DNA from: Escherichia coli
GTDB lineage: Bacteria; Pseudomonadota; Gammaproteobacteria; Enterobacterales; Enterobacteriaceae
Assembly (NCBI RefSeq): GCF_013122565.1
Contig: NZ_CP053258.1
Length of the DNA: 64,000 nucleotides
Strand: one strand, 5' to 3'
The notes below the pieces were generated by a model, which did not search any database, was not told the origin of the DNA, and was given only the letters and a program-made list of their open reading frames with translations. The position numbers and the translations under genes were made by a program. Shown here in pieces: positions 2,550 to 35,941 of this stretch (positions are counted from its first letter, which is position 1; every line of letters begins with the position of its first letter).

Positions 2550-2556
2550 GCCTGTA

Positions 2557-4290: not shown

Positions 4291-4350
4291 TCTACAATAT
4301 GAAAATGACGCCTTTTACAGCGCCATTTTCAGCTTAAAGTTCAAAAGAGA

Positions 4351-5004
4351 TTATATCCCTTCTTCACTCTCTTTTTTCGCTTCTGCCTTCTCGATTTCAC
4401 GATACCAGCGCGGATGGTGTTTCTTCGCCCAGCGACGGCTCACCTTCCCTTCGATCATCCCTTTAATCGATCCTTTCACCCAGAATGCCATATACATATG
4501 GATCAGGATGGCGTGGATCAGGATGATACCCGCAGCCGCGTGGATCAGCAGGCTGTAGCGAACAACTTGCATCGGGAAGTACTGCGCAAAGTACGGACGC
4601 CAGATAATTACCCCGGTCACCAGCAGCACAAAAATCATACTCATGATTGACCAGAACATCATCTTTTGCCCGGCGTTGTACTTACCAACATCCGCCACTT
4701 TATGCTCATTGCCTTTCAATACTTCGACAATGTTCAACAGCCACGGAATATCTTTCTTATCCGGGATGTTGTGATGCACAAAACGCACAAACATAAACAT
4801 CAGCGCGACGAAAATCGCAATGCCGAAGAACGGGTGCAAAATGCGTCCCATCTGCGGCGTACCGAAGGTTTGCGTCAGCCATTGCAGCGTCGGGAAGAAG
4901 AACGAAATCCCGGACAGCGCCACCAGGAAGAAGCAAATCACCACGGTCCAGTGACAGGCGCGATCAATAAATTTGGTGCGCACAATCATTTTCGACTTAC
5001 TCAT
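4351..5004 (-). CDS. fdnI: Formate dehydrogenase-N gamma subunit, cytochrome b556 (217 aa)
   Basis: Track ORF 4351..5046; 217-aa form starts [19 protein letters not shown]; hydrophobic helices with His ligands; overlaps fdnH stop by 8 nt. Confidence 0.92.
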
Positions 5005-5881
5005 GATGATCCTCCTCGTCATCGTCCACTTCCTTATTCGGGCCAATACCGATGTAGTGGAAAATCAACCCGGCAAAAGTGGCAATAAAGCCAGCCGCTG
5101 CCAGCGGTTTCAACGCGCCTTTCCACAGGCTTACCGAGGTGTCGATCTTCGGATCTTTCGGCAGACCGTGATACAGCTCCGGCTGATCGGCGTGATGCAG
5201 CACGTACATAACGTGCGTACCACCGACCCCTTCCGGGTTGTAGACGCCAGCATGTTCGTAACCACGCGCTTTCAGTTTCGCCACGCGCTGTTCCGCCAGC
5301 TCCAGCATCTCCTTCTTGGTGCCGAAGTGGATAGCCCCGGTCGGACAGGTTTTCACACAAGCCGGTTCCTGGCCGACGCTGACGCGATCGACGCAGAGCG
5401 TGCATTTATATACCCGGTTATCCTCTTTGTTGAGGCGCGGAATATTAAACGGACACCCGGCAATGCAGTAACCACAGCCGATGCAGTTTTCCGACTGGAA
5501 ATCGACAATCCCGTTAGCGTACTGAATGATTGCACCAGCAGATGGGCACGCCTTCAGGCAGCCGGGATCTTCACAGTGCATACAGCCGTCTTTACGGATC
5601 AGCCACTCCAGCTTGCCGTTCTGTTCGGTTTCGCTAAAGCGCATCACCGTCCAGGACTTGGCGCTCAGATCGGCGGGGTTATCGTAAACCCCGACGCAGT
5701 GCCCCACTTCATCACGGATGTCGTTCCACTCCGAACACGCCACCTGACAGGCTTTACAACCGATACAGGTGGAAACGTCGATAAGCTTCGCGACTTCTGC
5801 TTTGTAATCACGCACCTGAGAAGGCGGCGTGATGGAGTTAGTTGCGGACCTTTTGATAATGTCCTGCGTTTCCATAGCCAT
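4997..5881 (-). CDS. fdnH: Formate dehydrogenase-N beta subunit, 4x[4Fe-4S] (294 aa)
   Basis: Track ORF 294 aa; multiple CxxCxxCxxxCP ferredoxin motifs ([45 protein letters not shown]). Confidence 0.93.
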
Positions 5882-5893
5882 CTGTTCGCCCCC

Positions 5894-8800
5894 TTACGCC
5901 TTCTCGATGTTGACTAAGAACGCTTTATATTCCGGCGTTTGCGAGTTTGCATCACCGACATTCGGCGTCAGAGTGTTAGCGATATAACCTTTACGCGCGA
6001 CACCCTCAAAGCCCCAGTGGATCGGAATACCCACCGTTTCAACCTGCTGACCATTTACATTCAGCGGTTTCAGACGGCGCGTTACCACCGCCACCGCGCG
6101 GATAAAGCCACGCTTGCTTGAGACAGTGACACGATCGCCATTATTAATGCCTTTCGCCGCCGCCAGCGTTTCGCTGATTTCCACAAACTGTTCCGGCTGA
6201 GCAATTGCGTTGAGCAACGCGTGCTTGGTCCAGGTGTGGAAGTGCTCGGTCAGACGATAGGTCGTACCCACATACGGGAACTGCTCTTTTTTACCCATCC
6301 GCAGCGCGTCTTGTTCATACAGACGAACGACCGGGTTAGACACCACGTTCGGATGCAGCGGGTTAGTGCCCAGCGGCGTTTCAATCGGCTCGTAGTGTTC
6401 CGGGAACGGACCTTCCGCCATTTTGTTGATGGCAAACAGGCGTCCCATCCCTTCCGGCTGCATGATAAACGGCCCGGTTGGCGTACCCGGTGCGGCATTG
6501 CCGAAGTCCGGAATATCGTTACCCGTCCACTTGCTGCCGTTCCACTGGATCAGCATCCGTTTCGGATCCCACGGTTTACCGTTGATATCCGCCGAAGCAC
6601 GGTTGTAGAGTACGCGACGGTTGAGCGGCCACGCCCAGGCCCATCCCAGCGTATTCCCCAGACCGGACGGGTCGGAGTTATCGCGGTTAGCCATCTGGTT
6701 GCCCTGCTCTGTCCAGCTACCGGTGTAGATCCAGCAAGAAGATGCGGTTGTACCGTCATCACGCAGATGCGCAAAGCTACTCAGCAACTGACCTTTCTTC
6801 GCAATCAGCACGCCATTTGCGTCATAGAGATCTTCCAGCGCATAGCCGTTGTTCTCTTTTGCCACTTCGTCAGATTGCGGTTCGTGCGGCTGCTTGTAGT
6901 TCCAGCTCATCTTCATCAGCGGTTCTACGCCTTTACCACCTTCGGCCTGGTACAGCTCGCGCAGATGATGGTAGATACCCGCCAGAATTTCGCCGTCGTT
7001 ACGCGCTTCGCCCGGCGCGTCCTGACCTTTCCAGTGCCACTGCAACCAGCGACCGGAGTTAGCGATAGAACCATCTTCTTCGGCAAAGCAGGTCGAAGGC
7101 AGACGGAATACTTCAGTCTGAATAGACGCCGGATCGACATCGTTCGACTCGCCGTGGTTCTGCCAGAAGGTAGAGGTTTCAGTCACCAGCGGATCGATAA
7201 CCACCATGTACTTCAGCTTGCTCAGGCAGCTCACCACTTTGTTTTTGTCCGGGAAGGACGCAACCGGGTTAAAGCCCTGGCAGAAATAACCGGTGACTTT
7301 GCCTTCGTCCATCATGTTGAAATACTTGATGACGTCGTAGGTCTGGTCCCACTTCGGCAGCCAGTCATAGCCCCAGTTGTTCTCTTTCTGCGCGGCATCG
7401 CCATAGAAAGATTTCATCAGGCTAACGAAGAACTTCGGATAGTTGCTCCAGTAGTTCACCTGATCAGCCAGCGTCGCTTTCGGCGTGTTCGCTTCCAGAT
7501 ACGACTGCAAATCAACCTGTTTTTCTGACGGCAGCGTCAGATAACCTGGCAGGCTGGTAGAGAGCAGGCCTAAGTCAGTCAGGCCCTGAATGTTGGAGTG
7601 ACCACGCAATGCGTTCACGCCGCCACCGGCCATACCCATGTTACCGAGCAGCAACTGGATCATCGCCATAGTACGGATGTTCTGCGCACCCACGGTGTGC
7701 TGCGTCCAGCCCAGCGCGTACAGGAAGGTGGTTGTGCGATCCGGTGCGCTGGTGGAGGCCAGCACTTCACACACTTTCAGGAAGTCGGCTTTTGGCGTAC
7801 CGCAGATGTTTTCAACGACGTCCGGCGTGTAGCGGGAAACGTGCGCTTTCAGCAGGTTCCACACACAGCGCGGATGAGTCAGTGTTTCATCGCGTTTCGC
7901 ATAGCCGTTTTCATCGAACTGATAGTTCCAGGACGATTTATCGTATTGCCGTTTTTCAGCGTCGTAGCCGCTGAACAGACCGTCTTCGAAAGCAAAATCA
8001 TCACGCACCAGCAGGCTGGCGTTGGTGTAATGCTTAACATATTCGGCGTTGATTTTGTTGTTTTCGATCAGGTAGCGCAAAACGCCAGACAGGAACGTAA
8101 TGTCCGTACCGGAACGAATAGGTGCGTAAATATCCGCCACAGAAGCGGTACGCGTAAAACGGGGATCGACAACGATCAGGGTTGCATCGTTGTTGTTTTT
8201 CGCTTCCATCGCCCAGCGGAAACCGACGGGATGCGCTTCCGCAGCGTTACCGCCCATTACCATTACGACGTTAGCGTTTTTGATATCCACCCAGTGGTTG
8301 GTCATCGCACCGCGACCAAATGTTGGAGCAAGACTTGCTACCGTTGGTCCGTGTCAGACGCGCGCCTGGTTGTCTACCGCCAGCATCCCGAGGGAGCGGG
8401 CAAATTTCTGGGTCAGCATCCCGGTTTCGTTGCTGGCACCGGAGGCACACAGCATACCGGTAGAAAGCCAACGGTTTACCGTTACGCCCTGCTCGTTCTT
8501 TTCAATAAAGTTAGCGTCACGGTCAGCTTTCATCAGCTTCGCAATACGGGTGAATGCTTCTTCCCAGCTAATGCGCTGCCATTTGTCAGAACCTGGCGCA
8601 CGATATTCCGGGTAGCGCAGACGGTTTTCGCTGTTGACGTAATCCAGCAAACCGGCCCCTTTCGGACACAGCGCACCACGGCTTACCGGATGATCCGGGT
8701 CACCTTCAATGTGATAAATCGCTTCTCTGGCGTTTTTCGCGCCATCACCCAGGCTATACATCAATAGCCCGCAACCTACGGAACAGTATGTGCAGGTGTT

Positions 8801-9085: not shown

Positions 9086-9172
9086 AAACGCACCACTGCC
9101 TGACAGGCCAGTTAAAAAAATGCTATAAAATTCAGCTTAATTTTTAACGGCAAGAGAGACAAAACAGCGAGC

Positions 9173-10054
9173 ATGACACGACAAAAAGCAACGCTCATAG
9201 GGCTAATAGCGATCGTCCTGTGGAGCACGATGGTAGGATTGATTCGCGGTGTCAGTGAGGGGCTCGGCCCGGTCGGCGGTGCAGCTGCTATCTATTCATT
9301 AAGCGGGCTGCTGTTAATCTTCACAGTTGGATTTCCGCGTATTCGGCAAATCCCGAAAGGCTATTTGCTCGCCGGGAGTCTGTTATTCGTCAGCTATGAA
9401 ATCTGTCTGGCGCTTTCATTAGGGTATGCGGCGACCCGTCATCAGGCGATTGAAGTGGGTATGGTGAACTATCTATGGCCCAGCCTGACAATTCTCTTTG
9501 CCATTCTGTTTAATGGTCAGAAAACCAACTGGCTGATTGTACCAGGATTATTATTAGCCCTCGTCGGCGTCTGCTGGGTGCTAGGCGGTGACAATGGGTT
9601 ACATTATGATGAAATCATCAATAATATCACCACCAGTCCATTGAGTTATTTCCTGGCGTTTATTGGTGCGTTTATCTGGGCAGCCTATTGCACAGTAACG
9701 AATAAATACGCACGCGGATTTAATGGAATTACCGTTTTTGTCCTGCTAACGGGAGCAAGTCTGTGGGTTTACTATTTTCTCACGCCACAACCAGAAATGG
9801 TATTTAGCACGCCCGTCATGATTAAACTCATCTCTGCGGCATTTACCTTAGGATTTGCTTATGCTGCATGGAATGTCGGTATATTGCATGGCAACGTCAC
9901 TATTATGGCGGTAGGTTCGTATTTTACGCCCGTACTTTCCTCAGCGCTTGCAGCCGTGCTGCTCAGCGCCCCGCTGTCGTTCTCGTTCTGGCAAGGCGCG
10001 CTAATGGTCTGCGGCGGTTCCCTGCTCTGCTGGCTGGCGACACGTCGTGGTTAA
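9173..10054 (+). CDS. yddG: Aromatic amino acid exporter, DMT superfamily (293 aa)
   Basis: Track ORF 293 aa, polytopic membrane protein; position downstream of fdnG as in K-12. Confidence 0.88.
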   Translation: MTRQKATLIGLIAIVLWSTMVGLIRGVSEGLGPVGGAAAIYSLSGLLLIFTVGFPRIRQIPKGYLLAGSLLFVSYEICLALSLGYAATRHQAIEVGMVNYLWPSLTILFAILFNGQKTNWLIVPGLLLALVGVCWVLGGDNGLHYDEIINNITTSPLSYFLAFIGAFIWAAYCTVTNKYARGFNGITVFVLLTGASLWVYYFLTPQPEMVFSTPVMIKLISAAFTLGFAYAAWNVGILHGNVTIMAVGSYFTPVLSSALAAVLLSAPLSFSFWQGALMVCGGSLLCWLATRRG

Positions 10055-21933: not shown

Positions 21934-22610
21934 TTCAGTATCTGAACGTCTTTTTTTACGATATCTACCCGTACATTTGCGCGACGGTGTTTTTCCTCGG
22001 CAGCTGGCTGCGCTACGACTACGGGCAGTACACCTGGCGCGCCTCCTCAAGTCAAATGCTCGATAAACGCGGGATGGTGATATGGTCGAATCTGTTCCAT
22101 ATCGGCATTTTGGGGATCTTCTTCGGGCACCTGTTCGGCATGTTAACGCCGCACTGGATGTACGCGTGGTTTTTGCCAGTGGCAGCGAAACAACTAATGG
22201 CGATGGTGCTCGGCGGTATTTGCGGTGTGTTGACGTTGATTGGCGGCGCAGGACTGCTGTGGCGCAGGCTGACAAATCAGCGCGTGCGTGCCACTTCTAC
22301 TACGCCGGATATCATCATCATGAGCATTTTGCTGATCCAGTGTCTGTTGGGGCTAAGTACCATACCGTTTTCAGCACAGTATCCTGATGGTAGCGAAATG
22401 ATGAAGCTGGTGGGTTGGGCGCAAAGCATTGTCACTTTCCGAGGTGGATCGTCAGAAATGCTTAACGGCGTAGCGTTCGTTTTCCGCCTGCATCTGGTGT
22501 TGGGAATGACCATCTTCCTGCTCTTCCCGTTCACCCGACTGGTGCATGTGTGGAGCGCGCCGTTTGAGTACATTACTCGTCGGTATCAGATTGTGCGCTC
22601 GCGGCGATAA
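21930..22610 (+). CDS. narV: Respiratory nitrate reductase 2 gamma subunit, cytochrome b (226 aa)
   Basis: Track ORF 226 aa; start overlaps narW stop (ATGA); five hydrophobic helices. Confidence 0.9.
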
Positions 22611-22689
22611 TTTTCACCCTGGCCGGATAGCCCTTCGCTCTCCGGCCACTTGCAGGCTATGATAGTTCTCCAGCCACAGGAGAACGTTA

Positions 22690-23583
22690 ATGAAACCGCA
22701 GGTTTACCACGTCGATGCTTTTACCTCTCAACCATTTCGCGGCAATTCTGCCGGTGTTGTTTTCCCCGCCGATAATCTTAGCGAAGCACAAATGCAGCTT
22801 ATCGCCCGCGAATTAGGTCATTCGGAAACCGCTTTTCTGCTGCACAGCGACGACAGCGATGTACGCATCCGCTACTTTACGCCAACGGTTGAGGTGCCGA
22901 TTTGCGGACACGCGACTGTGGCAGCGCACTATGTACGATCGAAAGTGTTAGGTTTGGGGAATTGCACCGTCTGGCAAACATCTCTTGCGGGACGTCATCG
23001 CGTGACTATCGAAAAGCACAACGATGATTATCGTATTTCGCTGGAACAAGGTACGCCGGGCTTTGAGCCACCGCTGGAAGGTGAAACACGTGCGGCGATT
23101 ATCAACGCGCTTCATCTCACTGAGGACGATATTCTGCCAGGCTTGCCAATTCAGGTGGCAACAACAGGACACTCAAAAGTGATGATTCCGCTGAAACCAG
23201 AAGTGGATATCGACGCCCTTTCGCCTGATCTTGCTGCGCTGACCGCTATCAGTAAACAGATTGGCTGCAATGGTTTCTTCCCGTTCCAGATCCGCCCAGG
23301 CAAAAACGAAACCGATGGTCGTATGTTCTCGCCTGCCATTGGTATTGTGGAAGATCCGGTGACCGGTAATGCCAATGGCCCGATGGGCGCATGGTTGGTA
23401 CATCACAACGTATTGCCCCACGATGGCAACGTGTTGCGTGTTAAAGGCCATCAGGGGCGCGCATTGGGGCGTGACGGCGTGATTGAAGTGACGGTGACAA
23501 TTCGTGATAACCAACCGGAAAAAGTCACCATTTCTGGCACAGCGGTGATTTTGTTTCATGCCGAATGGGCAATTGAACTCTGA
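22690..23583 (+). CDS. yddE: PhzF-family isomerase-like protein (297 aa)
   Basis: Track ORF 297 aa; MKPQVYHVDAFTSQPFRGNSAGVVF is the PhzF/DapF-fold N-terminus. Confidence 0.88.
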   Translation: MKPQVYHVDAFTSQPFRGNSAGVVFPADNLSEAQMQLIARELGHSETAFLLHSDDSDVRIRYFTPTVEVPICGHATVAAHYVRSKVLGLGNCTVWQTSLAGRHRVTIEKHNDDYRISLEQGTPGFEPPLEGETRAAIINALHLTEDDILPGLPIQVATTGHSKVMIPLKPEVDIDALSPDLAALTAISKQIGCNGFFPFQIRPGKNETDGRMFSPAIGIVEDPVTGNANGPMGAWLVHHNVLPHDGNVLRVKGHQGRALGRDGVIEVTVTIRDNQPEKVTISGTAVILFHAEWAIEL

Positions 23584-23590
23584 AACCTCT

Positions 23591-23666
23591 GCCTGATGCG
23601 CTTCGCTTATCAGGTCTACAACCGAGCTAATGTATGCCGGATAAGGCGTTTACGCCGCATCCGGCA
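23591..23666. repeat. REP/BIME extragenic palindromic repeats
   Basis: gcctgatgcgcttcgcttatcaggtctac and gccggataaggcgtttacgccgcatccggca between convergent yddE and nhoA. Confidence 0.6.
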
Positions 23667-23678
23667 ACCTGACATAAA

Positions 23679-24524
23679 TTATTTTCCCGCCTCCGGGTGC
23701 GTATCAAACGCCGCCATCACCAGCGCTAACTCATCCACGGTAAAGCCATGTTTCGCATCATCCACCCCCAGACCAAACCGTTCCTGCATCACGGCATATA
23801 ACGACGCCACATCCGGTAGATTTCGCTGCCCCACCGCGTGCCCATTTTCATAATGGGTAAAATGAAAATTGGTCAGCGTTAGCTTGCCACCGTCCGCCAA
23901 ATGGCGGCACATCAGCAAATGATGGCGAAAATGCGACTGTGGCCAGTGCGCCGACCAGAAATTGCCCATCACATAATCGCTTTGTTGCTGCTCGCAGAGA
24001 TCAAAACGGTACATCGACTGCCAGTGCTGATGATGATTAAACTGCAACACCCAATCATCACCCTCCTGCAACAACCGATACTCTCCGTGTGGCGTGGTCT
24101 GCACGAGCTCGGGAACTAACCGAATCGGCGCGGTTAGCGTCTGTCCACCGAAACCGACATCAGCAATCCATTTTTCCCCTTCCAGTTCCACCAACAGCAA
24201 ACGATGGGTGCGCGGCGGTAATGCTGGCGGATTTGATAACACTACGCGCCCTAACAAGCTGCGAACGTTAAACCCCAGCTCGCGTAACACCCGCTCAAAC
24301 ACGCCATTCTGCTCAAAACAGTAACCGCCACGACGGGCTGTCACCAGTTTCTCTTCCAGCGATTGATCATCAAGCTGTATTTCCCTCGGCAGCAAAACGT
24401 CGAGGTTTTCAAACGGAATGGTGCAATTGTGTTTCAGGTGCAATGCACGCAGCGTATCAATATTGACCGCAGCAGCTCCCGACCAGTTAATACGGGCAAA
24501 ATAGTGATTCAGAATGGGCGTCAT
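23679..24524 (-). CDS. nhoA: Arylamine N-acetyltransferase / N-hydroxyarylamine O-acetyltransferase (281 aa)
   Basis: Track ORF 281 aa; NAT family with catalytic Cys in RRGGYCFEQN. Confidence 0.9.
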   Translation of the reverse strand: MTPILNHYFARINWSGAAAVNIDTLRALHLKHNCTIPFENLDVLLPREIQLDDQSLEEKLVTARRGGYCFEQNGVFERVLRELGFNVRSLLGRVVLSNPPALPPRTHRLLLVELEGEKWIADVGFGGQTLTAPIRLVPELVQTTPHGEYRLLQEGDDWVLQFNHHQHWQSMYRFDLCEQQQSDYVMGNFWSAHWPQSHFRHHLLMCRHLADGGKLTLTNFHFTHYENGHAVGQRNLPDVASLYAVMQERFGLGVDDAKHGFTVDELALVMAAFDTHPEAGK

Positions 24525-24698
24525 CAGGCGTTTCCCTTAGTGGTTTTCTCAACTTATAACCTGGAATAGACGACGCACCGGCTATTTTGTGCGATCGCGG
24601 ACATGCATCACGTTCGCAAATCGCCAATCCCGTTAATTTCGTTACTTATTGCGTTACGAGCTACGCTTTTAAAACAACCTTCTTCGCGAGGCGATACC

Positions 24699-25268
24699 AT
24701 GAGCCGATTTATCCCCGTCGAATTACACCATGCCAGCCGTCTGTTAAATCATGGTCCAACTGTCATGATCACCAGTTTCGATGAGCAATCCCAGCGGCGT
24801 AACATTATGGCTGCGGCCTGGTCAATGCCGGTGGAGTTTGAACCGCCACGCGTGGCGATTGTGGTAGATAAATCGACATGGACCAGGGAGTTGATTGAAC
24901 GTAACGGTAAATTTGGCATAGTTATCCCGGGCGTTGCAGCAACTAACTGGACGTGGGCGGTGGGAAGTGTGTCAGGGCGTGATGAAGATAAATTTAATTG
25001 CTATGGCATTCCGGTTGTGAGGGGCCCGGTACTTGGTTTGCCTCTGGTCGAGGAAAAATGTCTGGCGTGGATGGAGTGTCGATTGCTACCTGCGACTTCT
25101 GCGCAAGAAAAATACGACACGCTGTTTAGCGAGGTGGTATCAGCAGCGGCAGACGCACGGGTTTTTGTCGAAGGCCGCTGGCAGTTTGATGATGATAAAC
25201 TCAATACGTTGCATCATTTAGGTGCTGGCACGTTTGTTACCAGCGGCAAGCGAGTCACCGCGGGCTAA
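24699..25268 (+). CDS. yddH: Flavin reductase-like domain protein (189 aa)
   Basis: Track ORF 24603..25268; 189-aa form starts MSRFIPVELHHASRLLNHGPTVMITS; flavin-reductase-like fold. Confidence 0.82.
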   Translation: MSRFIPVELHHASRLLNHGPTVMITSFDEQSQRRNIMAAAWSMPVEFEPPRVAIVVDKSTWTRELIERNGKFGIVIPGVAATNWTWAVGSVSGRDEDKFNCYGIPVVRGPVLGLPLVEEKCLAWMECRLLPATSAQEKYDTLFSEVVSAAADARVFVEGRWQFDDDKLNTLHHLGAGTFVTSGKRVTAG

Positions 25269-25334
25269 AGAATCATATGCAGCAACCAGGTTGCTTAAGC
25301 AATATTTCCATATGAGTTAAAAGCATATTTTATC

Positions 25335-25801
25335 TCACGATTGCATATTTTTAGTGAAGATTACTTTATCCTCACCAACATCATAGTAATTGCGTATTAT
25401 CGCCTCATTGATAAAGCCCTGTTTTGTATAAAATGCGCGGGCGGCACTAAAATCGATATGGCTAGAGGTCTCTACTAAAAGTAGTCTAGCCTGTTTAATT
25501 GTGAGTTTTTTTCTATTTCGTTGATCAGCAGATGTCCCACTCCCTGGCGCTGATGGGAAGGACTGATCCAGAGCAATAATAAATTCCAGACATCATTTGT
25601 CATCACTTCAGGAGCACAATAGGCAATCCCTGCCAGTCCTAAGTGTTCTGCACTAAACCATAAATCGGCAGATTGACCTGAGAAATAATGTGTTAGTGTT
25701 TTTTGTACATGATGAAGGCCATCTTGATCAAATTGTCCACTGGCAAGCAGCATATCCAGTAATGGTTCAACATCTGAAGGTTTGACTGGTCGTATAAACA
25801 T
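25335..25801 (-). pseudogene. GNAT-family N-acetyltransferase interrupted by a frameshift at an A7 homopolymer
   Basis: Track ORF 25475..25801 (108 aa, ends ...HQRQGVGHLLINEIEKNSQLNRLDYF*) is the N-terminal part. The next frame continues from the A7 tract (top-strand T7 at 25506-25512) as KKLTIKQARLLLVETSSHIDFSAARAFYTKQGFINEAIIRNYYDVGEDKVIFTKNMQS* to a stop at 25335, a RimI-like GNAT C-terminus. One extra A would restore a ~157-aa protein. Confidence 0.6.
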
Positions 25802-26094
25802 GGAATTCCTTATCTATTTATGAATGTTTGAAAATTGTTTGCGTGGAACACGGTCAATCTGAAGTCAATATTTTTGAGAAAGAATAGATGGGTATTTATA
25901 TAAACAAAGAAGCCATTTCTTTAAATATTAATTAAAGTATAACATTAACACCGGACTTCATTGCGACAGGACACGACAAAGCAATTTTGCGGTTTTTTCA
26001 GGGTGCATTACAAAAATTGAATCCTTTATGGACTAATGTGAGAAAATTACGAGGCATAACTATTTTGATATAGTGGACAATCAAGCGTCTCGAA

Positions 26095-26847
26095 TTAACA
26101 ATGACTTTCAGATGCTAAACCATGCAATTGGTAGTATGTCGGATATAGGACAACATTAGGAAATCGGACAGAAAATTCAGCATAATAAAATGACAACTTA
26201 TCTCTTTCTCTCACTTTCTGAGAAATTTCACAAAAGTATAAACTGAGCCAATATGCCTTTATATATAAAAAATACTCATGCTTATTTTTATCGGAAAAAG
26301 CCAAAATTGTGTCAAGTCCATCAAAAATATCTTTATCATGATTTATATGTACTCTTGATGAATTTACAATATCTTTTAATTCGCGGTAAATCTTATTAAA
26401 TAGCGCAACCGATTCACTGTTATTGAATCCATAGTTGATAAAAAGACATGATTTAACATCCGATATTAGTAAGTCGTCATAATCTATCTCAATTCCACAC
26501 AATTTCACGATATACTCAGCTATAGTATTACTTTGCAAGGACTCAACAACTGACAGTAAAACAGATGGATGCAATAATATTTCAAGAAGACTTCTGTCGA
26601 TATTTTTATACACGTTTATTGCAAATTCATCACTCGTCCCATCGATGGTGTCAGATATTAAAAAAAATACATACTCGGGGAGTTCATACCACATATTAAT
26701 TTTAATAATATCACGACACGTATCTTCTAACTGTTGTAATCTATTACCTTTATTCATAACAACCTTAATGTTATTATATGGAATCTTTAGCGTAATCTTC
26801 TTAACTCCGAGGAATTTTACTAAACCGTTGTTAGAGAAAATATGCAT
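26095..26847 (-). CDS. Hypothetical protein (250 aa), AT-rich island ORF of unknown function
   Basis: Track ORF; AT-rich, Asn/Ile/Lys/Tyr-rich; own upstream region of ~270 nt containing a 10-bp inverted repeat. No family recognised. Confidence 0.55.
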   Translation of the reverse strand: MHIFSNNGLVKFLGVKKITLKIPYNNIKVVMNKGNRLQQLEDTCRDIIKINMWYELPEYVFFLISDTIDGTSDEFAINVYKNIDRSLLEILLHPSVLLSVVESLQSNTIAEYIVKLCGIEIDYDDLLISDVKSCLFINYGFNNSESVALFNKIYRELKDIVNSSRVHINHDKDIFDGLDTILAFSDKNKHEYFLYIKAYWLSLYFCEISQKVRERDKLSFYYAEFSVRFPNVVLYPTYYQLHGLASESHC

Positions 26848-27115
26848 ATCACTGACAGCGTGTTATTAATTCACTCTGGTGTTATATAACAAAAATATCC
26901 CCTCCTGTTTTCACCTCTTTGTATTCATGATAGTTAAGGGGAGTGCTAACTTAATATAACACCTGTATTTTCTCACTTTTAGCAAAAACACAAGTTTACT
27001 AAAGAACATAACATTACTGGTTAAACTGTAAAAACAATTGATAACGAAGAGCATCATAAGTTAATAATTTGATTGTTTTCAATGCATTATTACAACTGCA
27101 TTCAGAAGTATATTT

Positions 27116-27676
27116 TTACATAAAGTGTTTATTGATGATTTTTACCAGTTCATCTTTTGCAATAAGCTCTATATTTAAATTAACACACTCAACAATCTGA
27201 AGAAATGTGTCACTTAGTATATGTTCATGATCACCTTTCGTATGCATTTTGACAAAAAGGCCAAAAGATGCGCGAACAAAAGATATCTCGGGGTTATCCC
27301 ATGTAAACCATCGTACTCCACCACCTTCATTCATATACTCCCTTATTCTATGCTGTTCATTATTAAAACTTGAAAAATTAACGTTTTTTTCAAAGAAGGC
27401 ATTTTGCGCTAAAGATATTATTTTCCTGGATAATTCATTACAAACACGAGGGTTCGTGTCAAGAATAAATACCATTACATCAAGTGTAAAATGACGTATT
27501 TTATCTATATTTTTCCTTTTCATTGGTCCTAGCAATGAACCGTAAACTTTATCAATACGTTCATCAAGCAATCTTACCATATTTTTTCTTTCTATTTCGA
27601 TGTAATAATCTGGTTGATTATGTATCCCGCTATTATTTTGATGGTTCATTGTTTTAATTTTTTTGCTTTTTTTCAT
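27116..27676 (-). CDS. Hypothetical protein (186 aa), AT-rich island ORF of unknown function
   Basis: Track ORF; GAGG SD 4 nt upstream of ATG; Lys-rich N-terminus MKKSKKIKTMNHQNNSG; no family recognised. Confidence 0.55.
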   Translation of the reverse strand: MKKSKKIKTMNHQNNSGIHNQPDYYIEIERKNMVRLLDERIDKVYGSLLGPMKRKNIDKIRHFTLDVMVFILDTNPRVCNELSRKIISLAQNAFFEKNVNFSSFNNEQHRIREYMNEGGGVRWFTWDNPEISFVRASFGLFVKMHTKGDHEHILSDTFLQIVECVNLNIELIAKDELVKIINKHFM

Positions 27677-27783
27677 TGTTACCTCGTTGTGTCATGATTT
27701 TAGTAGTGGATGAAAAATAACACCGACTCATCAGATTTTAATTAAGTTTTCATGTTGGCTAATTCGTTTGAAGAGTTACTACT

Positions 27784-28206
27784 TTATTCAATCCAGTAAG
27801 CTAGTCGCTCTCCAGAGCTTAGATTTTCCCTTTTGTAATAAAATACTGTATCGAAATTAAGTGAAATGGTTTCTGCTATAACTTTAAACTGTAATATTGA
27901 CTCGGAATAAAACTCGAGAACAATATTAGCATCATTATTATCATTGATTATTTTTAGTTTCATAAAATCATCAAGAGGATCACAAGTCCAGTACGTATCA
28001 CCACTCATGTAAGATGGTGCATTTATTATTATTTCAAAATTATGATAATAAGAAAGATCACTACTGCCAACGATAATTAATCGCCCATTACTATAGAGAT
28101 AAATTTCAAAATCTATCCAACAGTTATTTCTGTAATTACGCCTGATTTCGTCCACTACATTTTGTTGTTTCATTTTGGATACTTGTAAAATATAATTACT
28201 ACGCAT
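27784..28206 (-). CDS. Hypothetical protein (140 aa), AT-rich island ORF; possible immunity-type protein
   Basis: Track ORF; starts 44 nt after the upstream ORF stop; no family recognised. Confidence 0.5.
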   Translation of the reverse strand: MRSNYILQVSKMKQQNVVDEIRRNYRNNCWIDFEIYLYSNGRLIIVGSSDLSYYHNFEIIINAPSYMSGDTYWTCDPLDDFMKLKIINDNNDANIVLEFYSESILQFKVIAETISLNFDTVFYYKRENLSSGERLAYWIE

Positions 28207-28250
28207 TGATAAAGTGATATATGATCTTATATAGGTCGCACCTGTAAAAT

Positions 28251-28583
28251 TTAAAATGTGTTAACTTCCCTTCTTAACAATACAAACCCCTCAAGGCTTA
28301 ATATTTTATTTTTTAACTCATCATGCCTGATCGTATCATTGATATAGAGAAGATAAGTATACTCAGGATAATCGACCTCATCCACTACACCATCCAAAAC
28401 ATCATAATTTTCTTTTAGAAGAAAATGTTCATGGCTTTTGTCTCCGGACAATAAATAGATTCCGCCATAATAAAGGCTTTCTTTCTCTTTAAATGTGATT
28501 TTTATTACATCTTCTAACATCTTCAGCGCATCATAGATTCCTACTCCAGAATATCCATACAAGTCATAATAACTCATTCCCAT
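28251..28583 (-). CDS. Hypothetical protein (110 aa), AT-rich island ORF; possible immunity-type protein
   Basis: Track ORF; AGGTG SD; starts 21 nt after the upstream ORF stop (operon-like coupling); acidic, Tyr-rich. Confidence 0.5.
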   Translation of the reverse strand: MGMSYYDLYGYSGVGIYDALKMLEDVIKITFKEKESLYYGGIYLLSGDKSHEHFLLKENYDVLDGVVDEVDYPEYTYLLYINDTIRHDELKNKILSLEGFVLLRREVNTF

Positions 28584-28604
28584 TTCACCTGTTTGAATTT
28601 GTAT

Positions 28605-28877
28605 TCATTTACCCTCACGGGATTTAGTAATTACATTCAGCAGTGGCTTTAAGTGTGATGTTACAAAACTATCACGCCTTTGCTCAATTATCATTTGGAT
28701 ATACTGTTTTGTATCAGTGTTACCATACTTAGCCATATAGAACATTACTGCGTCCATTATATCTCTTTCATAGTTTTCTATTGCATCAACATAGACATCA
28801 ACCAGAGTATTAACTTCTTTATTTGATGGATGTTCTGAAAGATTACTCTCAAATTGTGAGAATCTGAATCGTACCAT
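28605..28877 (-). CDS. Hypothetical protein (90 aa), first ORF of the AT-rich island next to yncG
   Basis: Track ORF; occupies the slot where K-12 has yncH/rhsE; no family recognised. Confidence 0.45.
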   Translation of the reverse strand: MVRFRFSQFESNLSEHPSNKEVNTLVDVYVDAIENYERDIMDAVMFYMAKYGNTDTKQYIQMIIEQRRDSFVTSHLKPLLNVITKSREGK

Positions 28878-29143
28878 TACGATTCTCTTAGAAATATCAT
28901 TAAATACGCTACCGCCCTACCCTGATAACATGATCTGCACGGCGCTATCATATCGGTATGTTTCTCTATATGCGAAAAGATGTTTTATTTTCAGATTAAA
29001 TCAAATAGATATTTAATATAAAAAACGAAATTTCATCAATCATATAAATAGTTGTACTAACTTCAATTACCATTCATAGCAAACAAATAGACGCCCAGTT
29101 AACTTTGCCGATGATTTATTAACATTAATCTCCGGCATTATTG

Positions 29144-29761
29144 TTAAATAATGGCATTCCTTTTTAGTACTTCTTGTAACTTTGGTATCTGACATACAGC
29201 ATCAGCAATCGCACTGATATTCGTGGCATTATCCTGAAACCATTCATGCCCAGGCCCCCATGTGCGCATAGTGCAAAGATAACAGTCCACCAGCGTTAGT
29301 TGCTCACCAAACGCATAAGGTTCAGCGGTCAATTGTGAATTCAGCCAGATATAAAGCGATTTACGATATTCAATAACATTCTCCTTTAACTGTTCGGGTG
29401 CGTCAGGAGCCCAACGCTCAGGGTAATCGGCGAAAGTGAATGTTGGATAGACATTAGCAACCAGCCAGACCAATAGCCGTTGAAACTGCTGACGTTCGGC
29501 GCGCCCAACCGGTGGCACAAGGTCCGGGCGACGATCGAGAACCATCAATGCAATCGCCGCTGTCTCCGTCATAATCTCGTCATTTTCCAATGCCAGTGTC
29601 GGAACCTGGCACAACGGGTTCAGGGTTTTCAATAACTCGCGTGAAGCTCCCTCGTGGTCAAAACCACTGACATCAACGAACTGATAAGGAATATCAGCCA
29701 GTGTTAGCATCAGCTCACTGATTGTAGAGCCCCATCCGGGTACGCCATACACCTTAATCAT
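29144..29761 (-). CDS. yncG: Glutathione S-transferase homolog (205 aa)
   Basis: Track ORF 205 aa; MIKVYGVPGWGSTISELMLTLADIPYQFVDV is a GST N-terminal thioredoxin-like fold. Confidence 0.88.
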   Translation of the reverse strand: MIKVYGVPGWGSTISELMLTLADIPYQFVDVSGFDHEGASRELLKTLNPLCQVPTLALENDEIMTETAAIALMVLDRRPDLVPPVGRAERQQFQRLLVWLVANVYPTFTFADYPERWAPDAPEQLKENVIEYRKSLYIWLNSQLTAEPYAFGEQLTLVDCYLCTMRTWGPGHEWFQDNATNISAIADAVCQIPKLQEVLKRNAII

Positions 29762-30027
29762 ATGCCCCTCACAATCTTTTAAAGATTAAGTGTAGGACAG
29801 TACACAGGTTAACCAGCAAAAGGATTTGTCATTTTTTCGTCAGTTGTATTAATCCCCTTCAGGATTGTAAGGGGATGTTTTGCATCGTTTATCGATAACG
29901 GGTAGGATGCTGCGCCGATAGTTTTATACCCATAAAGAATAATGGTGATAACTACCATCGCCAGGATGAATAAACATTGTTCATGGCAACTTATATGACT
30001 TTTTCATTAAAGCAATCAGGGAGAGCA

Positions 30028-31527
30028 ATGAGTAAACACGACACCGACACTTCAGATCAACACGCCGCGAAACGCCGCTGGCTTAATGCCCACGAAGAGG
30101 GGTATCACAAAGCGATGGGCAATCGCCAGGTACAGATGATTGCCATTGGCGGCGCGATTGGCACCGGCTTGTTTTTAGGCGCGGGAGCCCGACTGCAAAT
30201 GGCGGGGCCAGCACTGGCACTGGTCTATTTGATCTGCGGCCTGTTTTCATTTTTTATTCTGCGTGCATTGGGTGAGCTGGTGTTACATCGCCCTTCCAGT
30301 GGCAGCTTTGTTTCTTATGCCCGTGAGTTTTTAGGAGAGAAAGCCGCTTATGTTGCTGGCTGGATGTACTTCATCAACTGGGCGATGACGGGGATTGTTG
30401 ATATTACCGCCGTCGCTCTGTATATGCATTACTGGGGGGCGTTTGGCGGCGTGCCGCAGTGGGTCTTTGCGCTCGCTGCGCTGACCATCGTTGGCACCAT
30501 GAATATGATCGGTGTGAAATGGTTTGCGGAGATGGAGTTCTGGTTTGCGCTTATTAAAGTGCTCGCCATTGTGACCTTTTTGGTCGTGGGTACAGTGTTC
30601 CTCGGTAGCGGCCAGCCGCTGGATGGCAACACCACTGGCTTTCATTTAATTACCGATAACGGCGGCTTCTTCCCCCACGGTTTGCTGCCTGCGCTGGTGT
30701 TGATTCAGGGCGTAGTGTTTGCTTTTGCCTCCATTGAAATGGTGGGTACAGCTGCCGGAGAATGTAAAGATCCGCAGACCATGGTGCCTAAAGCGATTAA
30801 CAGTGTGATTTGGCGTATTGGCCTGTTTTACGTCGGCTCCGTGGTGTTGCTGGTTATGTTATTGCCGTGGAGCGCGTATCAGGCGGGGCAAAGTCCTTTC
30901 GTGACGTTTTTCTCTAAACTGGGTGTGCCGTACATCGGCAGCATTATGAACATTGTGGTGCTGACCGCTGCCCTCTCCAGCCTGAACTCAGGTCTGTACT
31001 GCACCGGACGTATTCTGCGCTCGATGGCGATGGGCGGTTCCGCACCGAGTTTTATGGCGAAAATGAGTCGTCAGCATGTGCCGTATGCCGGGATTCTGGC
31101 GACACTGGTTGTGTATGTCGTCGGCGTATTCCTCAACTATCTGGTGCCGTCGCGCGTATTTGAGATTGTGTTGAACTTCGCGTCGCTGGGAATCATCGCT
31201 TCATGGGCGTTTATCATCGTGTGCCAGATGCGCCTGCGTAAAGCGATTAAAGAAGGCAAAGCAGCGGATGTCAGTTTTAAACTGCCTGGCGCGCCCTTCA
31301 CTTCCTGGCTGACATTACTGTTTTTACTGAGTGTCCTGGTGCTGATGGCGTTCGATTACCCGAACGGGACTTATACTATCGCGGCGCTGCCGATTATCGG
31401 TATTCTGCTGGTTATAGGCTGGTTTGGTGTGCGCAAACGTGTTGCTGAAATTCACAGCACTGCGCCAGTCGTCGAGGAAGATGAAGAAAAACAGGAAATT
31501 GAGTTTAAACCTGAAACGGCGAGTTAA
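30028..31527 (+). CDS. ansP: L-asparagine permease, APC family (499 aa)
   Basis: Track ORF 29977..31527; 499-aa form starts MSKHDTDTSDQHAAKRRWLNAHEEGYHKAMGNRQVQMIAIGGAIGTGLF (APC signature). Confidence 0.9.
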   Translation: MSKHDTDTSDQHAAKRRWLNAHEEGYHKAMGNRQVQMIAIGGAIGTGLFLGAGARLQMAGPALALVYLICGLFSFFILRALGELVLHRPSSGSFVSYAREFLGEKAAYVAGWMYFINWAMTGIVDITAVALYMHYWGAFGGVPQWVFALAALTIVGTMNMIGVKWFAEMEFWFALIKVLAIVTFLVVGTVFLGSGQPLDGNTTGFHLITDNGGFFPHGLLPALVLIQGVVFAFASIEMVGTAAGECKDPQTMVPKAINSVIWRIGLFYVGSVVLLVMLLPWSAYQAGQSPFVTFFSKLGVPYIGSIMNIVVLTAALSSLNSGLYCTGRILRSMAMGGSAPSFMAKMSRQHVPYAGILATLVVYVVGVFLNYLVPSRVFEIVLNFASLGIIASWAFIIVCQMRLRKAIKEGKAADVSFKLPGAPFTSWLTLLFLLSVLVLMAFDYPNGTYTIAALPIIGILLVIGWFGVRKRVAEIHSTAPVVEEDEEKQEIEFKPETAS

Positions 31528-31531
31528 TTGC

Positions 31532-31558
31532 AAAATTGCCCGGCTACGTGCCGGGCAA
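31532..31558. terminator. Hairpin/terminator between convergent ansP and yncE
   Basis: aaaattgcccggc-tacg-tgccgggcaa hairpin; the U-run is on the minus-strand reading, so it fits yncE best. Confidence 0.4.
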
Positions 31559-31580
31559 ATTGAAGGTGCTCTTTACTTCA

Positions 31581-31614
31581 TGCCGGATGCGGCAAGCGCC
31601 TTATCCGGCCTACG
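31581..31614. repeat. REP element
   Basis: tgccggatgcggcaagcgccttatccggcctac. Confidence 0.55.
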
Positions 31615-31637
31615 AAAGACAAACTCCCCCATATCTA

Positions 31638-32699
31638 TTACAGCGCAATACGAATCACATCGTCCGGCTGGGTAGCTTCCTGCTGTTTAGTGGATTTTTG
31701 TTTCACACTGACATACAGCGTTTTGCCATCGGCAGACAGCGCCAGGCTGTTCGGATGAGTCGGCGTATCGAACGTTTTCACCACTTTATAGCTTTTCGCG
31801 TCAATCACACTGACTTTACCTGCCTGACGATGCGTCACGTAGGCTTCATTACGCGCGGGGTTAAACAGCACAGCCAGTGATTCCGGTGCCGCAACCTTCG
31901 CCAGAATATTGCCATTACGGGTATCGACCACTAACACTTCTGCCGCTTTAGAATCGGTAATAAATGCACGCTGCCTGGCGGTATCAAGGCTGATGTTGAT
32001 AAAGAAGTGCTCTTTGCCGTCATCCAGCAGCTTTTTACGGCTGAGGATTTTATTGTCGGCGGTGTCGATAGTAATCAATTCGCCGTCAGCGTTAGTGGTG
32101 TAAAGACGTTTGCCTTTGCTATCCAACGCCAGACCGGTACTCATTTTACCGGTGTTCTGGATGGCGGTTTTCAGTTTGATATTCTCGCCATCAACGACCC
32201 AAATCACGCTATCTTTACCAATACCACTGATGTAAACGGTGTTCGTGGCATCGTCAGCTACCAGCTCACGCGGTTGCAGCGGGCGCACCTCTTCCGTGCG
32301 CTTACGCTCATCCAGCACCAGACGACCTTTCACCTCGCCCGTTTTGGCATCTATCGCCGTGACCGCGCTGTTTACGGTATTACCAAACCACAACGTCTGA
32401 GTCGTGTTATTGATGGTGGCACCAAACGGCTTGAGATCGTTATGGATCGCCTGCGTCACTTCCAGAGTGACCGGATCAAGTCGATAAACCACACCACCTT
32501 TATCCAGTTTGCGGCTTTGCGAAGTGGCGAGCCACAGCGCGTTTTCTTGCTGGCTATAAGCCATTTCGTAGGCGCCTTTACCTACCGCTTTACGCAGCAT
32601 TTCTTCTGCGGCCTGCGTACTGAATGATGAAGCAACAAGCAATGAACCTAACAGTAATGAACCACGCAGGCGCGATGAAAACAGATGACGTAAATGCAT
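31638..32699 (-). CDS. yncE: PQQ-like beta-propeller periplasmic protein (353 aa)
   Basis: Track ORF 353 aa; signal peptide; repeated beta-propeller blades (..GKRLYTTNADGELITID.., ..GKTLYVSVKQ..). Confidence 0.88.
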   Translation of the reverse strand: MHLRHLFSSRLRGSLLLGSLLVASSFSTQAAEEMLRKAVGKGAYEMAYSQQENALWLATSQSRKLDKGGVVYRLDPVTLEVTQAIHNDLKPFGATINNTTQTLWFGNTVNSAVTAIDAKTGEVKGRLVLDERKRTEEVRPLQPRELVADDATNTVYISGIGKDSVIWVVDGENIKLKTAIQNTGKMSTGLALDSKGKRLYTTNADGELITIDTADNKILSRKKLLDDGKEHFFINISLDTARQRAFITDSKAAEVLVVDTRNGNILAKVAAPESLAVLFNPARNEAYVTHRQAGKVSVIDAKSYKVVKTFDTPTHPNSLALSADGKTLYVSVKQKSTKQQEATQPDDVIRIAL

Positions 32700-32785
32700 G
32701 ACGACTCCCTTTGATGAACCGATATTTTTGCTGCTTCACAATGCTTCGCTAAGCGTAATCATCGTTACGCTCTTGTTATAAATGG

Positions 32786-32804
32786 GAATGGTAATCATTA
32801 TTTT
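32786..32804. promoter_or_regulatory. Putative Fur box in the yncE/yncD divergent promoter region
   Basis: gaatggtaatcattatttt matches the core Fur consensus AATGATAATCATTATC at about 14 of 16 positions (hand alignment), ~90 nt upstream of yncE and ~140 nt upstream of the TonB-dependent receptor yncD. Confidence 0.45.
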
Positions 32805-32940
32805 CTCAAATGTGGAGCATTTCTTGCCGTTACGACTACAATTTTCTCAATTACTTAACGTATCGTGCCGTTTCGTTTTCCATAAATTTACAATTTTATT
32901 ACCATGACGGCGTTTTCCCATTCTTAACCTGGCTTTTTTC

Positions 32941-35043
32941 ATGAAGATTTTTTCCGTCCGACAGACCGTTTTGCCCGCACTGCTTGTCCTTTCACCCGTT
33001 GTTTTTGCCGCTGATGAACAGACCATGATTGTCAGTGCCGCACCGCAGATGGTTTCCGAGCTGGATACCCCAGCAGCCGTGAGCGTGGTGGATGGCGAGG
33101 AGATGCGCCTGGCAACACCGCGCATTAACTTGTCTGAATCACTGACCAGCGTGCCTGGTTTGCAGGTACAAAACCGGCAGAACTATGCGCAAGATTTACA
33201 GCTGTCGATTCGCGGATTTGGCTCCCGCTCCACTTATGGAATTCGCGGTATTCGCCTGTATGTGGACGGTATTCCCGCTACCATGCCCGACGGACAAGGG
33301 CAGACATCCAATATCGATTTAAGCAGTGTGCAAAATGTGGAAGCGCTGCGTGGTCCCTTCTCTGCCCTGTATGGCAACGCGTCTGGCGGTGTAATGAATG
33401 TCACCACCCAGACCGGACAACAGCCACCAACCATTGAAGCCAGTAGTTACTACGGCAGTTTTGGCAGCTGGCGCTATGGGCTGAAAGCAACGGGCGCAAC
33501 GGGCGACGGCACACAGCCCGGCGATGTCGATTACACCGTCTCAACCACGCGTTTTACGACCCACGGCTATCGTGACCATAGTGGCGCACAGAAAAATTTA
33601 GCCAATGCCAAACTGGGCGTACGCATTGATGAAGCCAGCAAATTAAGCCTGATTTTCAATAGCGTGGATATCAAAGCAGATGACCCAGGTGGATTAACCG
33701 AAGCAGAATGGAAGGCGAATCCGCAACAAGCGCCACGCGCTGAACAGTACGACACGCGAAAAACCATCAAGCAAACTCAGGCTGGGTTGCACTATGAGCG
33801 TAGCCTGAGCGCACAAGATGATATGAGTGTGATGATGTATGCCGGAGAGCGAGAAACGACCCAGTACCAGTCAATCCCGATGGCCCCCCAACTTAATCCG
33901 TCGCATGCGGGCGGCGTGATTACTCTGCAACGCCATTACCAGGGGATAGACAGTCGCTGGACACACCGCGGCGAGCTGGGCGTTCCGGTCACGTTCACTA
34001 CCGGCCTGAACTACGAAAACATGAGTGAAAACCGCAAGGGCTACAATAACTTCCGCCTGAATAGCGGCATGCCGGAGTACGGGCAAAAAGGTGAGTTGCG
34101 TCGCGACGAACGCAATCTGATGTGGAATGTCGATCCCTATTTACAGACGCAGTGGCAGCTGAGCGAAAAACTGTCGCTGGATGCTGGCGTGCGCTACAGC
34201 TCTGTATGGTTTGATTCCAACGATCATTACGTTACTGCGGGTAACGGCGATGACAGCGGTGATGCCAGTTATCACAAATGGCTACCTGCCGGTTCGTTAA
34301 AATATGCAATGACCGATGCCTGGAATATCTATCTGGCAGCCGGGCGTGGTTTTGAAACGCCGACGATTAATGAGCTGTCTTATCGCGCTGACGGGCAAAG
34401 CGGTATGAACTTTGGTTTAAAACCATCCACCAACGATACAATTGAGATCGGCAGTAAAACGCGTATTGGTGATGGGCTGCTTAGTCTCGCATTGTTCCAG
34501 ACCGACACCGATGATGAAATTGTTGTCGATAGCAGTAGCGGTGGGCGTACGACTTACAAAAATGCCGGAAAGACCCGTCGTCAAGGTGCTGAACTGGCAT
34601 GGGATCAACGTTTCGCGGGAGATTTTCGCATAAACGCGACCTGGACCTGGCTTGATGCGACCTATCGCAGCAATGTGTGCAATGAACAGGATTGTAACGG
34701 TAATCGGATGCCAGGGATCGCCCGTAATATGGGCTTTGCGTCGATAGGTTATGTACCGGAAGATGGCTGGTATGCAGGCACGGAGGCGCGTTATATGGGC
34801 GATATTATGGCAGATGATGAAAATACGGCCAAAGCGCCGTCTTATACTCTCGTCGGCTTATTCACCGGGTATAAATACAATTACCACAATTTAACTGTGG
34901 ATTTATTTGGTCGTGTCGATAATTTATTCGATAAAGAATACGTTGGTTCTGTCATTGTCAATGAGTCAAACGGGCGATATTACGAACCTGCGCCCGGGCG
35001 AAATTATGGTGTCGGCATGAATATTGCGTGGCGATTTGAGTAA
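32941..35043 (+). CDS. yncD: TonB-dependent outer-membrane receptor (700 aa)
   Basis: Track ORF 700 aa; signal peptide, plug domain, C-terminal ...NIAWRFE beta-barrel terminus with aromatic last residues. Confidence 0.9.
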   Translation: MKIFSVRQTVLPALLVLSPVVFAADEQTMIVSAAPQMVSELDTPAAVSVVDGEEMRLATPRINLSESLTSVPGLQVQNRQNYAQDLQLSIRGFGSRSTYGIRGIRLYVDGIPATMPDGQGQTSNIDLSSVQNVEALRGPFSALYGNASGGVMNVTTQTGQQPPTIEASSYYGSFGSWRYGLKATGATGDGTQPGDVDYTVSTTRFTTHGYRDHSGAQKNLANAKLGVRIDEASKLSLIFNSVDIKADDPGGLTEAEWKANPQQAPRAEQYDTRKTIKQTQAGLHYERSLSAQDDMSVMMYAGERETTQYQSIPMAPQLNPSHAGGVITLQRHYQGIDSRWTHRGELGVPVTFTTGLNYENMSENRKGYNNFRLNSGMPEYGQKGELRRDERNLMWNVDPYLQTQWQLSEKLSLDAGVRYSSVWFDSNDHYVTAGNGDDSGDASYHKWLPAGSLKYAMTDAWNIYLAAGRGFETPTINELSYRADGQSGMNFGLKPSTNDTIEIGSKTRIGDGLLSLALFQTDTDDEIVVDSSSGGRTTYKNAGKTRRQGAELAWDQRFAGDFRINATWTWLDATYRSNVCNEQDCNGNRMPGIARNMGFASIGYVPEDGWYAGTEARYMGDIMADDENTAKAPSYTLVGLFTGYKYNYHNLTVDLFGRVDNLFDKEYVGSVIVNESNGRYYEPAPGRNYGVGMNIAWRFE

Positions 35044-35078
35044 TTACCTTGATGCCCGGTATTTGCCGGGCATTTACC

Positions 35079-35744
35079 TTAACGATTGTATTGCTGGTAT
35101 AGAATAGCAATATTTTGTTGCATAATTTCAGCAAGACAATGTCTGCATCCCTCTTTGTCTTTTGCTTTTAGCGCGGCGAGTAATAGATGATAGTTTTCTA
35201 TACGCTCCCGTAATTCCGCTGGATTAATCGCTTCATAGAGATAATGTAAACCAGGTCCCATCCTGACCCACAGTTGCTCAATCATCTCACACAGAATGGG
35301 CATATTTGAACGATGATAAATTGCTAAGCGAAATAGCCTGTTCGCATTAATGATTCGTTCCATGTCGCCCTTTTCTTGCGCCTGCTGTAATTTCTCAAGC
35401 AATTCCTGAAGTTCCTCCAGGTCTGGCGGGGTGAGGTTTTCAACAGCCAGAGTAACTGCCATTAATTCCAGTTCGTAGCGGATCCGATTGATTTCGTCTA
35501 ATTGACATTTCCCCACTTCCGGAACTGTAAATGCTTGCGCTGGTGCGACAGAAAGCGCATTCACCGAAACCAGACGTAATAATGCTTCACGCACAGGTGT
35601 AATACTCATACCTAATTGCTCCGCCAGATTTTTAGTAATCAGGCGTGCGCCAGGTTTTAGTGCGCCAATACTAAGCTGATGTTTCAGGTCGTTCTCAACC
35701 TGCAGAGTCAAACTGACATGTTTCATTTTTCCCGTTCCAGGCAT
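35079..35744 (-). CDS. mcbR: GntR-family transcriptional regulator (221 aa)
   Basis: Track ORF 35079..35801; 221-aa form starts MPGTGKMKHVSLTLQVENDLKHQLSIGALKPGARL; GntR HTH plus FCD domain. Confidence 0.82.
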   Translation of the reverse strand: MPGTGKMKHVSLTLQVENDLKHQLSIGALKPGARLITKNLAEQLGMSITPVREALLRLVSVNALSVAPAQAFTVPEVGKCQLDEINRIRYELELMAVTLAVENLTPPDLEELQELLEKLQQAQEKGDMERIINANRLFRLAIYHRSNMPILCEMIEQLWVRMGPGLHYLYEAINPAELRERIENYHLLLAALKAKDKEGCRHCLAEIMQQNIAILYQQYNR

Positions 35745-35941
35745 TTTAATTCCTTCGCGTGTTTTCTGTCCAACCCTGCCTGCATGGCAGAAGGAGTTCA
35801 CCTGGTGTATTAAAGTGAATAATCATAAACCACTCACCTTTGTTGTTATTAGCAGCAGAACAATGACGTGGTTAGTTAATTAAAGCTGAAAATAAGCTTT
35901 TTGCCTGGATTTTTATGGCGGCTTACGCCGCCGTTGAAACT

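Follow-up and report, generated by a model that had tools for sequence, protein, structure and literature searches.

A probable recent, strain-private loss of an accessory GNAT N-acetyltransferase gene beside yddH in Escherichia coli

In one sequenced chromosome of Escherichia coli, a gene for a GNAT N-acetyltransferase is broken by a frameshift. We interpret this as a genuine, recent and strain-private loss-of-function mutation in an accessory, stand-alone gene, forming part of an ongoing decay of that gene, and put the probability of this interpretation at roughly 80%. The frameshifted pseudogene occupies positions 25335–25801 (minus strand; 467 nt, GC 40%) of the 64,000-nt stretch of contig NZ_CP053258.1 that was analysed here and is referred to as the window, while intact orthologues have 468 nt (155 codons plus stop).

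That a GNAT gene is split by a frameshift at a run of seven A residues had been claimed by the first-pass annotation, and the reconstruction of the gene confirms this. The translation start signals are intact: the ATG lies at 25801–25799 (minus strand), and a Shine-Dalgarno sequence AAGGA can be read at 25807–25811 (minus strand), 5 nt upstream of it. The first ORF (25475–25801, minus strand; 108 aa), which NCBI annotates as WP_171459402.1 / QJU24278.1, is native in residues 1–98, comprising strands beta1–beta4, the QRQGVG acetyl-CoA loop and the first part of helix alpha3, and ends with 10 out-of-frame residues (...EIEKNSQLNRLDYF) followed by the stop codon TAG at 25477–25475. The C-terminal remnant (25335–25505, minus strand; codons 100–155 plus TGA) lies in the -1 frame, which is open from CTC (25505) through ...FYTKQGFINEAIIRNYYDVGEDKVIFTKNMQS to the TGA at 25337–25335, and encodes the end of alpha3, then beta5, alpha4 with the invariant residues R122, F124 and Y125, beta6 and beta7. 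No ATG, GTG or TTG start was found in this -1-frame remnant, so that it is not translatable as a separate polypeptide. When the two frames are joined, a protein of 155 aa results that shares 98% identity, from end to end, with the intact E. coli protein WP_000470660.1. The gene converges with yddH (24699–25268, plus strand), a conserved core gene for a member of the flavin reductase family. A scan of positions 25200–26150 for promoters and terminators gave no candidate beyond shuffle expectation.

The A7 run itself (25506–25512, minus strand; exactly seven A, or T7 on the plus strand) is a derived state. In all 12 complete E. coli genomes with an intact gene, the site reads GAA ATA GAA AAA GAG CTC (E-I-E-K-E-L; GAAAAAGAGCTC), with AAAAAGAG at the position of the run, while the window allele has GAA ATA GAA AAA AAC TC (GAAAAAAACTC). 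Relative to the intact alleles, the window allele carries a 1-nt deletion together with a G>A transition, and the difference between GAAAAAGAGCTC and GAAAAAAACTC indicates that the mutation gave rise to the run. A model in which an ancestral A8 tract lost one A was rejected, as intact relatives carry A5GAG. It had been proposed that one extra A would restore a protein of about 157 aa; the frame would indeed be restored, but the protein has 155 aa and the intact state is A5-G-A-G, not A8. In the comparison of tract length across strains that had been recommended, the tract is interrupted in intact orthologues and A7 is private to the window.

The orthologue in each of the 12 complete genomes is a single ORF of 155 aa, found at the same place and convergent with yddH. 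Homologues in Salmonella, Enterobacter, Phytobacter, Kluyvera, Citrobacter, Serratia, Yokenella, Aeromonas and beyond have 154–157 aa, a length kept across Enterobacterales (with E-values as low as 1e-83), and since the 155-aa product belongs to a family of conserved length, chance does not account for the split. Every other full-length member of the family is likewise a single ORF, which disposes of the possibility, named at the outset, that a two-ORF arrangement is the conserved state. In an alignment of 18 sequences, the residues R106, L107, L108, V110, T112, S113, R122, F124, Y125, G129 and K146 are invariant 3' of the break, and the -1 frame of the window still encodes every one of them, a retention that would fit a recent lesion. 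Of the explanations offered initially, recent inactivation is therefore the one that is upheld: only one genome has the lesion, the family-invariant residues have been kept, and one-ORF orthologues represent the conserved state. As the indel affects an ORF that relatives keep intact and conserved, and as we judge the allele to be real, the locus is classified as a frameshift pseudogene.

We propose that the change from GAAAAAGAGCTC to GAAAAAAACTC, through a 1-nt deletion and a G>A transition, took place at codon 99, inside helix alpha3 and immediately after the loop that would bind the pyrophosphate of acetyl-CoA. An AlphaFold model (pLDDT 95.2) with the topology b1-a1-a2-b2-b3-b4-a3-b5-a4-b6-b7 places residue 99 within the helix 88–102, directly after the QRQGVG loop (residues 84–89). 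The ribosome would then read 10 codons out of frame and terminate. Judged from the GNAT fold, the resulting 108-aa fragment, which would have neither beta5 nor alpha4, beta6 and beta7, is expected to be inactive.

This lesion does not stand alone. Traces of the gene were found in 660 of 5,426 complete E. coli genomes, and of these approximately 660 no more than 12 retain it intact. A nonsense allele, K127* (126 aa, with an A4GGAG tract), is present in 4 genomes. A B2-type allele, present in about 416 genomes including those of Nissle 1917, ATCC 25922 and ATCC 11775, combines W72* with an independent 1-nt deletion (A5>A4) in the same purine tract, and is annotated as a hypothetical protein of 71 aa. 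In about 228 genomes 5' deletions have left only the 3' 188–197 nt, which lie beside ISAs1, VgrG/PAAR/M35-peptidase or Rhs cargo, and in strain ET201 the gene is truncated by IS1. At least five other independent lesions are thus known, and the frameshift in the window is at least the sixth independent loss. We suggest that relaxed selection on this gene in E. coli would have led to its repeated loss through different lesions, the window allele being one instance. That a dispensable accessory GNAT gene becomes a pseudogene through a frameshift is an ordinary event of a known kind.

The 9-nt purine tract GAAAAAGAG has been frameshifted twice independently, at 25503–25514 in the window and at the equivalent site in the B2 strain 23AR0151. 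This suggests that GAAAAAGAG may be a small local hotspot for indels even without a long homopolymer.

The genomic setting is the E. coli chromosome, with the gene order fdn, narZYWV, yddE, nhoA, yddH … yncG, ansP, yncE, pqqU … hokB/sokB and RydC, in which yddH marks the edge of a variable region. Three RNA elements of the window were matched at Rfam gathering level, namely the SECIS element at the selenocysteine site of fdnG (8301–8359, minus strand), the sok antitoxin RNA of the hok/sok locus (62034–62185, plus strand) and the small RNA RydC (62745–62808, plus strand), and all of these are expected in this region of E. coli. The nearest complete RefSeq genomes of the species are those of the pigeon and poultry isolates PT62, LP5-1 and MB53, which are merely 98.0% identical over 16 kb (window 18000–34000). 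Between the GNAT gene and yncG lies an island of 30% GC (25800–29100) with five co-oriented ORFan genes on the minus strand (26095–26847, 27116–27676, 27784–28206, 28254–28577 and 28608–28877, encoding 250, 186, 140, 108 and 90 aa). Nothing significant was obtained for any of the five in NCBIfam and PADLOC, or for the 186-, 140- and 108-aa products in Pfam. Other E. coli carry in the same slot T6SS VgrG/PAAR/M35-peptidase, Rhs, SymE and ISAs1 cargo, and because of this one may speculate that the island ORFs are orphan genes of an immunity type. Strains differ in which of these island genes are broken: PT62 (extracted locus 9116–9677) and wlxctx60 have a split 186-aa ORF and an intact GNAT gene, and on the metagenome contig Ga0129312_1006813 (extracted locus 910–2487) both the 250-aa and the 186-aa ORFs are split, again beside an intact GNAT gene. 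Selection looks to have been relaxed across the entire island.

A homologue in Salmonella enterica (GCA_018535225.1, extracted locus 1–6380; 77% identical) is found inside an island bounded by an integrase; four small hypothetical ORFs of the same orientation immediately precede it, and a DUF3987 protein and AlpA follow. A tblastn search of the E. coli island ORFs against the Salmonella island gave no hits, the small ORFs being without similarity. The GNAT gene itself would best be regarded as horizontally acquired and as standing alone where a hypervariable region of the E. coli chromosome borders on yddH.

Membership of the encoded protein in the GNAT superfamily follows from domain profiles (Pfam on the intact orthologue: Acetyltransf_7, 8.8e-10; Acetyltransf_1, 6.8e-8; Acetyltransf_10, 8.2e-6) and from a fold with the Q/R-x-x-G-x-G/A acetyl-CoA loop between beta4 and alpha3; 715 GNAT chains in the PDB were matched at E<=1e-3. 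The closest match in both sequence and structure is DDE_3044 of Desulfovibrio desulfuricans (PDB 2r7h), which was ranked highest by phmmer (1.4e-14), by the PDB profile search (3e-26) and by Foldseek (TM 0.90, rmsd 1.8 Å), and which matches over the whole length, the N-terminal two-helix region included. With an identity of merely 25–30% or so, and being a structural-genomics entry without an established substrate, it transfers no function. Next in the profile search were Naa30, RimI and YsnE, at about 1e-7 to 1e-6. RimI and the N-terminal acetyltransferases Naa30 and Ard1 are the nearest named families (PDB 5isv, 2cnm and 7l1k; E about 1e-7), and have size and GNAT topology in common with the family described here. 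The top match in NCBIfam was likewise RimI (TIGR01575, E 2.5e-9), but its score of 37.4 bits is below the curated cut-off of 86.4, and NF007025 reached 26.7 bits against a cut-off of 173, so that the protein is not recognised as a RimI equivalog. Unlike RimI, it is encoded by an accessory, low-GC, island-borne gene, and it is not a RimI orthologue because the gene is not in the rimI locus. We regard it as a stand-alone, RimI/NAT-like GNAT protein from a monocistronic accessory gene.

Several other explanations have to be considered for this locus. One is an error of sequencing or assembly, in which the gene of the strain is intact and a base of a homopolymer has been dropped from the deposited sequence. 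In favour of it, homopolymers are classic sites of indel errors in long-read assemblies, and the allele is known from only one genome: records of the truncated protein comprise a single NCBI contig (4.82 Mb) and a single Logan contig, those of the intact protein 603 contigs. We nevertheless consider an error unlikely. The Logan contig (62 kb, from SRR11451224) is an independent k-mer assembly that is 100% identical to the window over 12,163 nt (23639–35801), tract included, although the run may hold the same data as those behind the deposited genome, and a short-read platform is only deduced from the 62-kb k-mer contig; a literature search found no paper on SRR11451224. When 16 genes of the surrounding 16 kb were compared with those of strain PT62, 15 aligned end to end without gaps and the GNAT gene alone was split, and this, together with the identity of the Logan assembly across the tract, makes an assembler artefact unlikely. 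In addition, a deletion accompanied by a G>A substitution is more than a simple homopolymer miscount. The initial suggestion of slipped-strand phase variation, with the run growing and shrinking and so toggling the gene, is less probable still. Indel rates are raised at A7 runs, and the same purine tract carries a frameshift in another lineage, B2; the B2 allele, however, also has a nonsense codon, which points to decay rather than to switching. As in the contingency loci of Neisseria, Haemophilus and Campylobacter, a coding mononucleotide run sets the reading frame here, but in contrast to those loci the run is short (7), unconserved, without length polymorphism between strains and derived from an interrupted tract. 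Since the mutation itself created the run, phase variation loses its main argument. Queries of 71 and 72 nt representing the A7 allele and a hypothetical A8 allele detected neither of them in the 5,426 complete E. coli genomes, a collection that does not include the genome of the window itself. Only 11 matches were obtained, all of them 72 nt long and showing 2 differences to each of the two queries, the result that an A5GAG sequence would give; ten of these are intact genes, and the eleventh is that of ET201, in which the IS1 truncation lies upstream of the tract. When JGI/ENA metagenome contigs were scanned with a gapped pattern that allowed any tract length, 3 contigs were found, all with A5GAG. 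The alleles found are A5GAG (intact genes), A4GGAG (the K127* lineage), A4GAG (B2-type) and A7 (window), and no pair among them represents an ON and an OFF state that differ by run length alone, so that the conserved, length-polymorphic tract with ON and OFF alleles that characterises a contingency locus is not found here. The Logan contig passes straight through the site and is unbranched at the tract, a weak indication regarding tract length within the culture. A second run in the gene, A6 on the gene strand at 25699–25704 (within ...GTACAAAAAACACT...), is invariant across all alleles aligned.

Recoding is another possibility, in which the full-length enzyme would still be made from a functional allele of low expression, either by -1 ribosomal frameshifting or by transcriptional slippage. 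An A_AAA_AAC heptamer (25505–25511, minus strand; gene nt 291–297) lies in the zero frame where the two ORFs overlap and has the X_XXY_YYZ form of a slippery site; a -1 slip on it would recover all 155 residues with the exchange E99N, while transcriptional slippage adding one A would give E99K, and position 99 varies between E, V, G and A in the family. A hairpin, GGCTAGACTAC-UUU-GUAGAGACCUCUAGCC (25460–25491, minus strand), is found 3' of the heptamer and is strengthened in the window allele by a private synonymous C>T (-13.4 kcal/mol, z -1.84, compared to -10.3 kcal/mol, z +0.28, in the intact allele). Stimulators of frameshifting usually lie 5–9 nt from the slippery site, but here the spacer is 13 nt, and 9 of 200 shuffled sequences fold equally well; for a stimulator the hairpin is poorly spaced, and its energy is not significant against the shuffles. 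The motif A_AA.A_AA.C, which is used by IS1, shifts frame in E. coli at more than 0.10% when no stimulator is present but is rated as one of low efficiency in this organism (Sharma et al. 2014, PMC4066793). The -1 frameshift site of IS1 insA-insB' is the identical A_AAA_AAC, which the window allele has in the correct phase, so that a -1 slip would fuse its two frames; in IS1, however, the motif is conserved and required, whereas in the window it is an unconserved accident of one genome without a convincing stimulator. Trace amounts of full-length protein from the window allele are plausible. Selected recoding is unlikely, because the arrangement is known from one genome alone and nothing therefore suggests selection; many other lineages, moreover, are losing the gene. 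On balance we hold recoding to be very improbable, about midway between error and phase variation; if true, it would be a natural 'savior' recoding of an indel, yielding a small and possibly useful amount of acetyltransferase with the aid of the hairpin.

Least probable of all, in our view, is that the gene encodes, or once encoded, the toxin of a type II toxin-antitoxin module of the TacT/AtaT/KacT kind that was inactivated after loss of its antitoxin, as an early remark on size had suggested. A protein of 155 aa with a GNAT fold is compatible with such a role, and like TacT, AtaT, KacT and ItaT it is a small single-domain GNAT protein on mobile DNA, found in variable contexts. In contrast to those toxins, no antitoxin gene lies next to it, either here or in other genera, and it shows no detectable specific sequence similarity to them. 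The first-pass annotation had seen no antitoxin ORF upstream, and it was right in this: a gap of 293 nt without a small RHH/DUF1778 ORF precedes the gene, followed by the unrelated 250-aa ORF. Neither was a conserved partner or antitoxin found near the homologues of Salmonella, Phytobacter and Yokenella; the upstream neighbours are wholly different among these genera and E. coli, with 270–440 nt of non-coding sequence before the gene, and intact copies persist without a partner gene. Profile and structure searches had been advised as a means to distinguish a RimI-like from a TacT/AtaT-like protein, and they gave a RimI/NAT-like result, with 2r7h, RimI and Naa30 as the nearest structures: TacT, AtaT, KacT and ItaT are absent from the best 60 PDB profile hits (E<=0.57) and from the best 50 Foldseek hits. 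A TacT/AtaT-type toxin was thus rejected by searches of the PDB with the sequence, a profile and the predicted fold, together with the absence of a conserved upstream partner.

Our preferred interpretation remains a genuine and recent inactivation, and its significance beyond a correct annotation is small. The locus deserves the label of a frameshifted GNAT pseudogene rather than that of a 108-aa "GNAT family N-acetyltransferase". It also illustrates that a homopolymer found at a frameshift need not be ancestral, as in this case the run was produced by the mutation, and it provides one further example of the dispensability of this accessory GNAT gene in E. coli.
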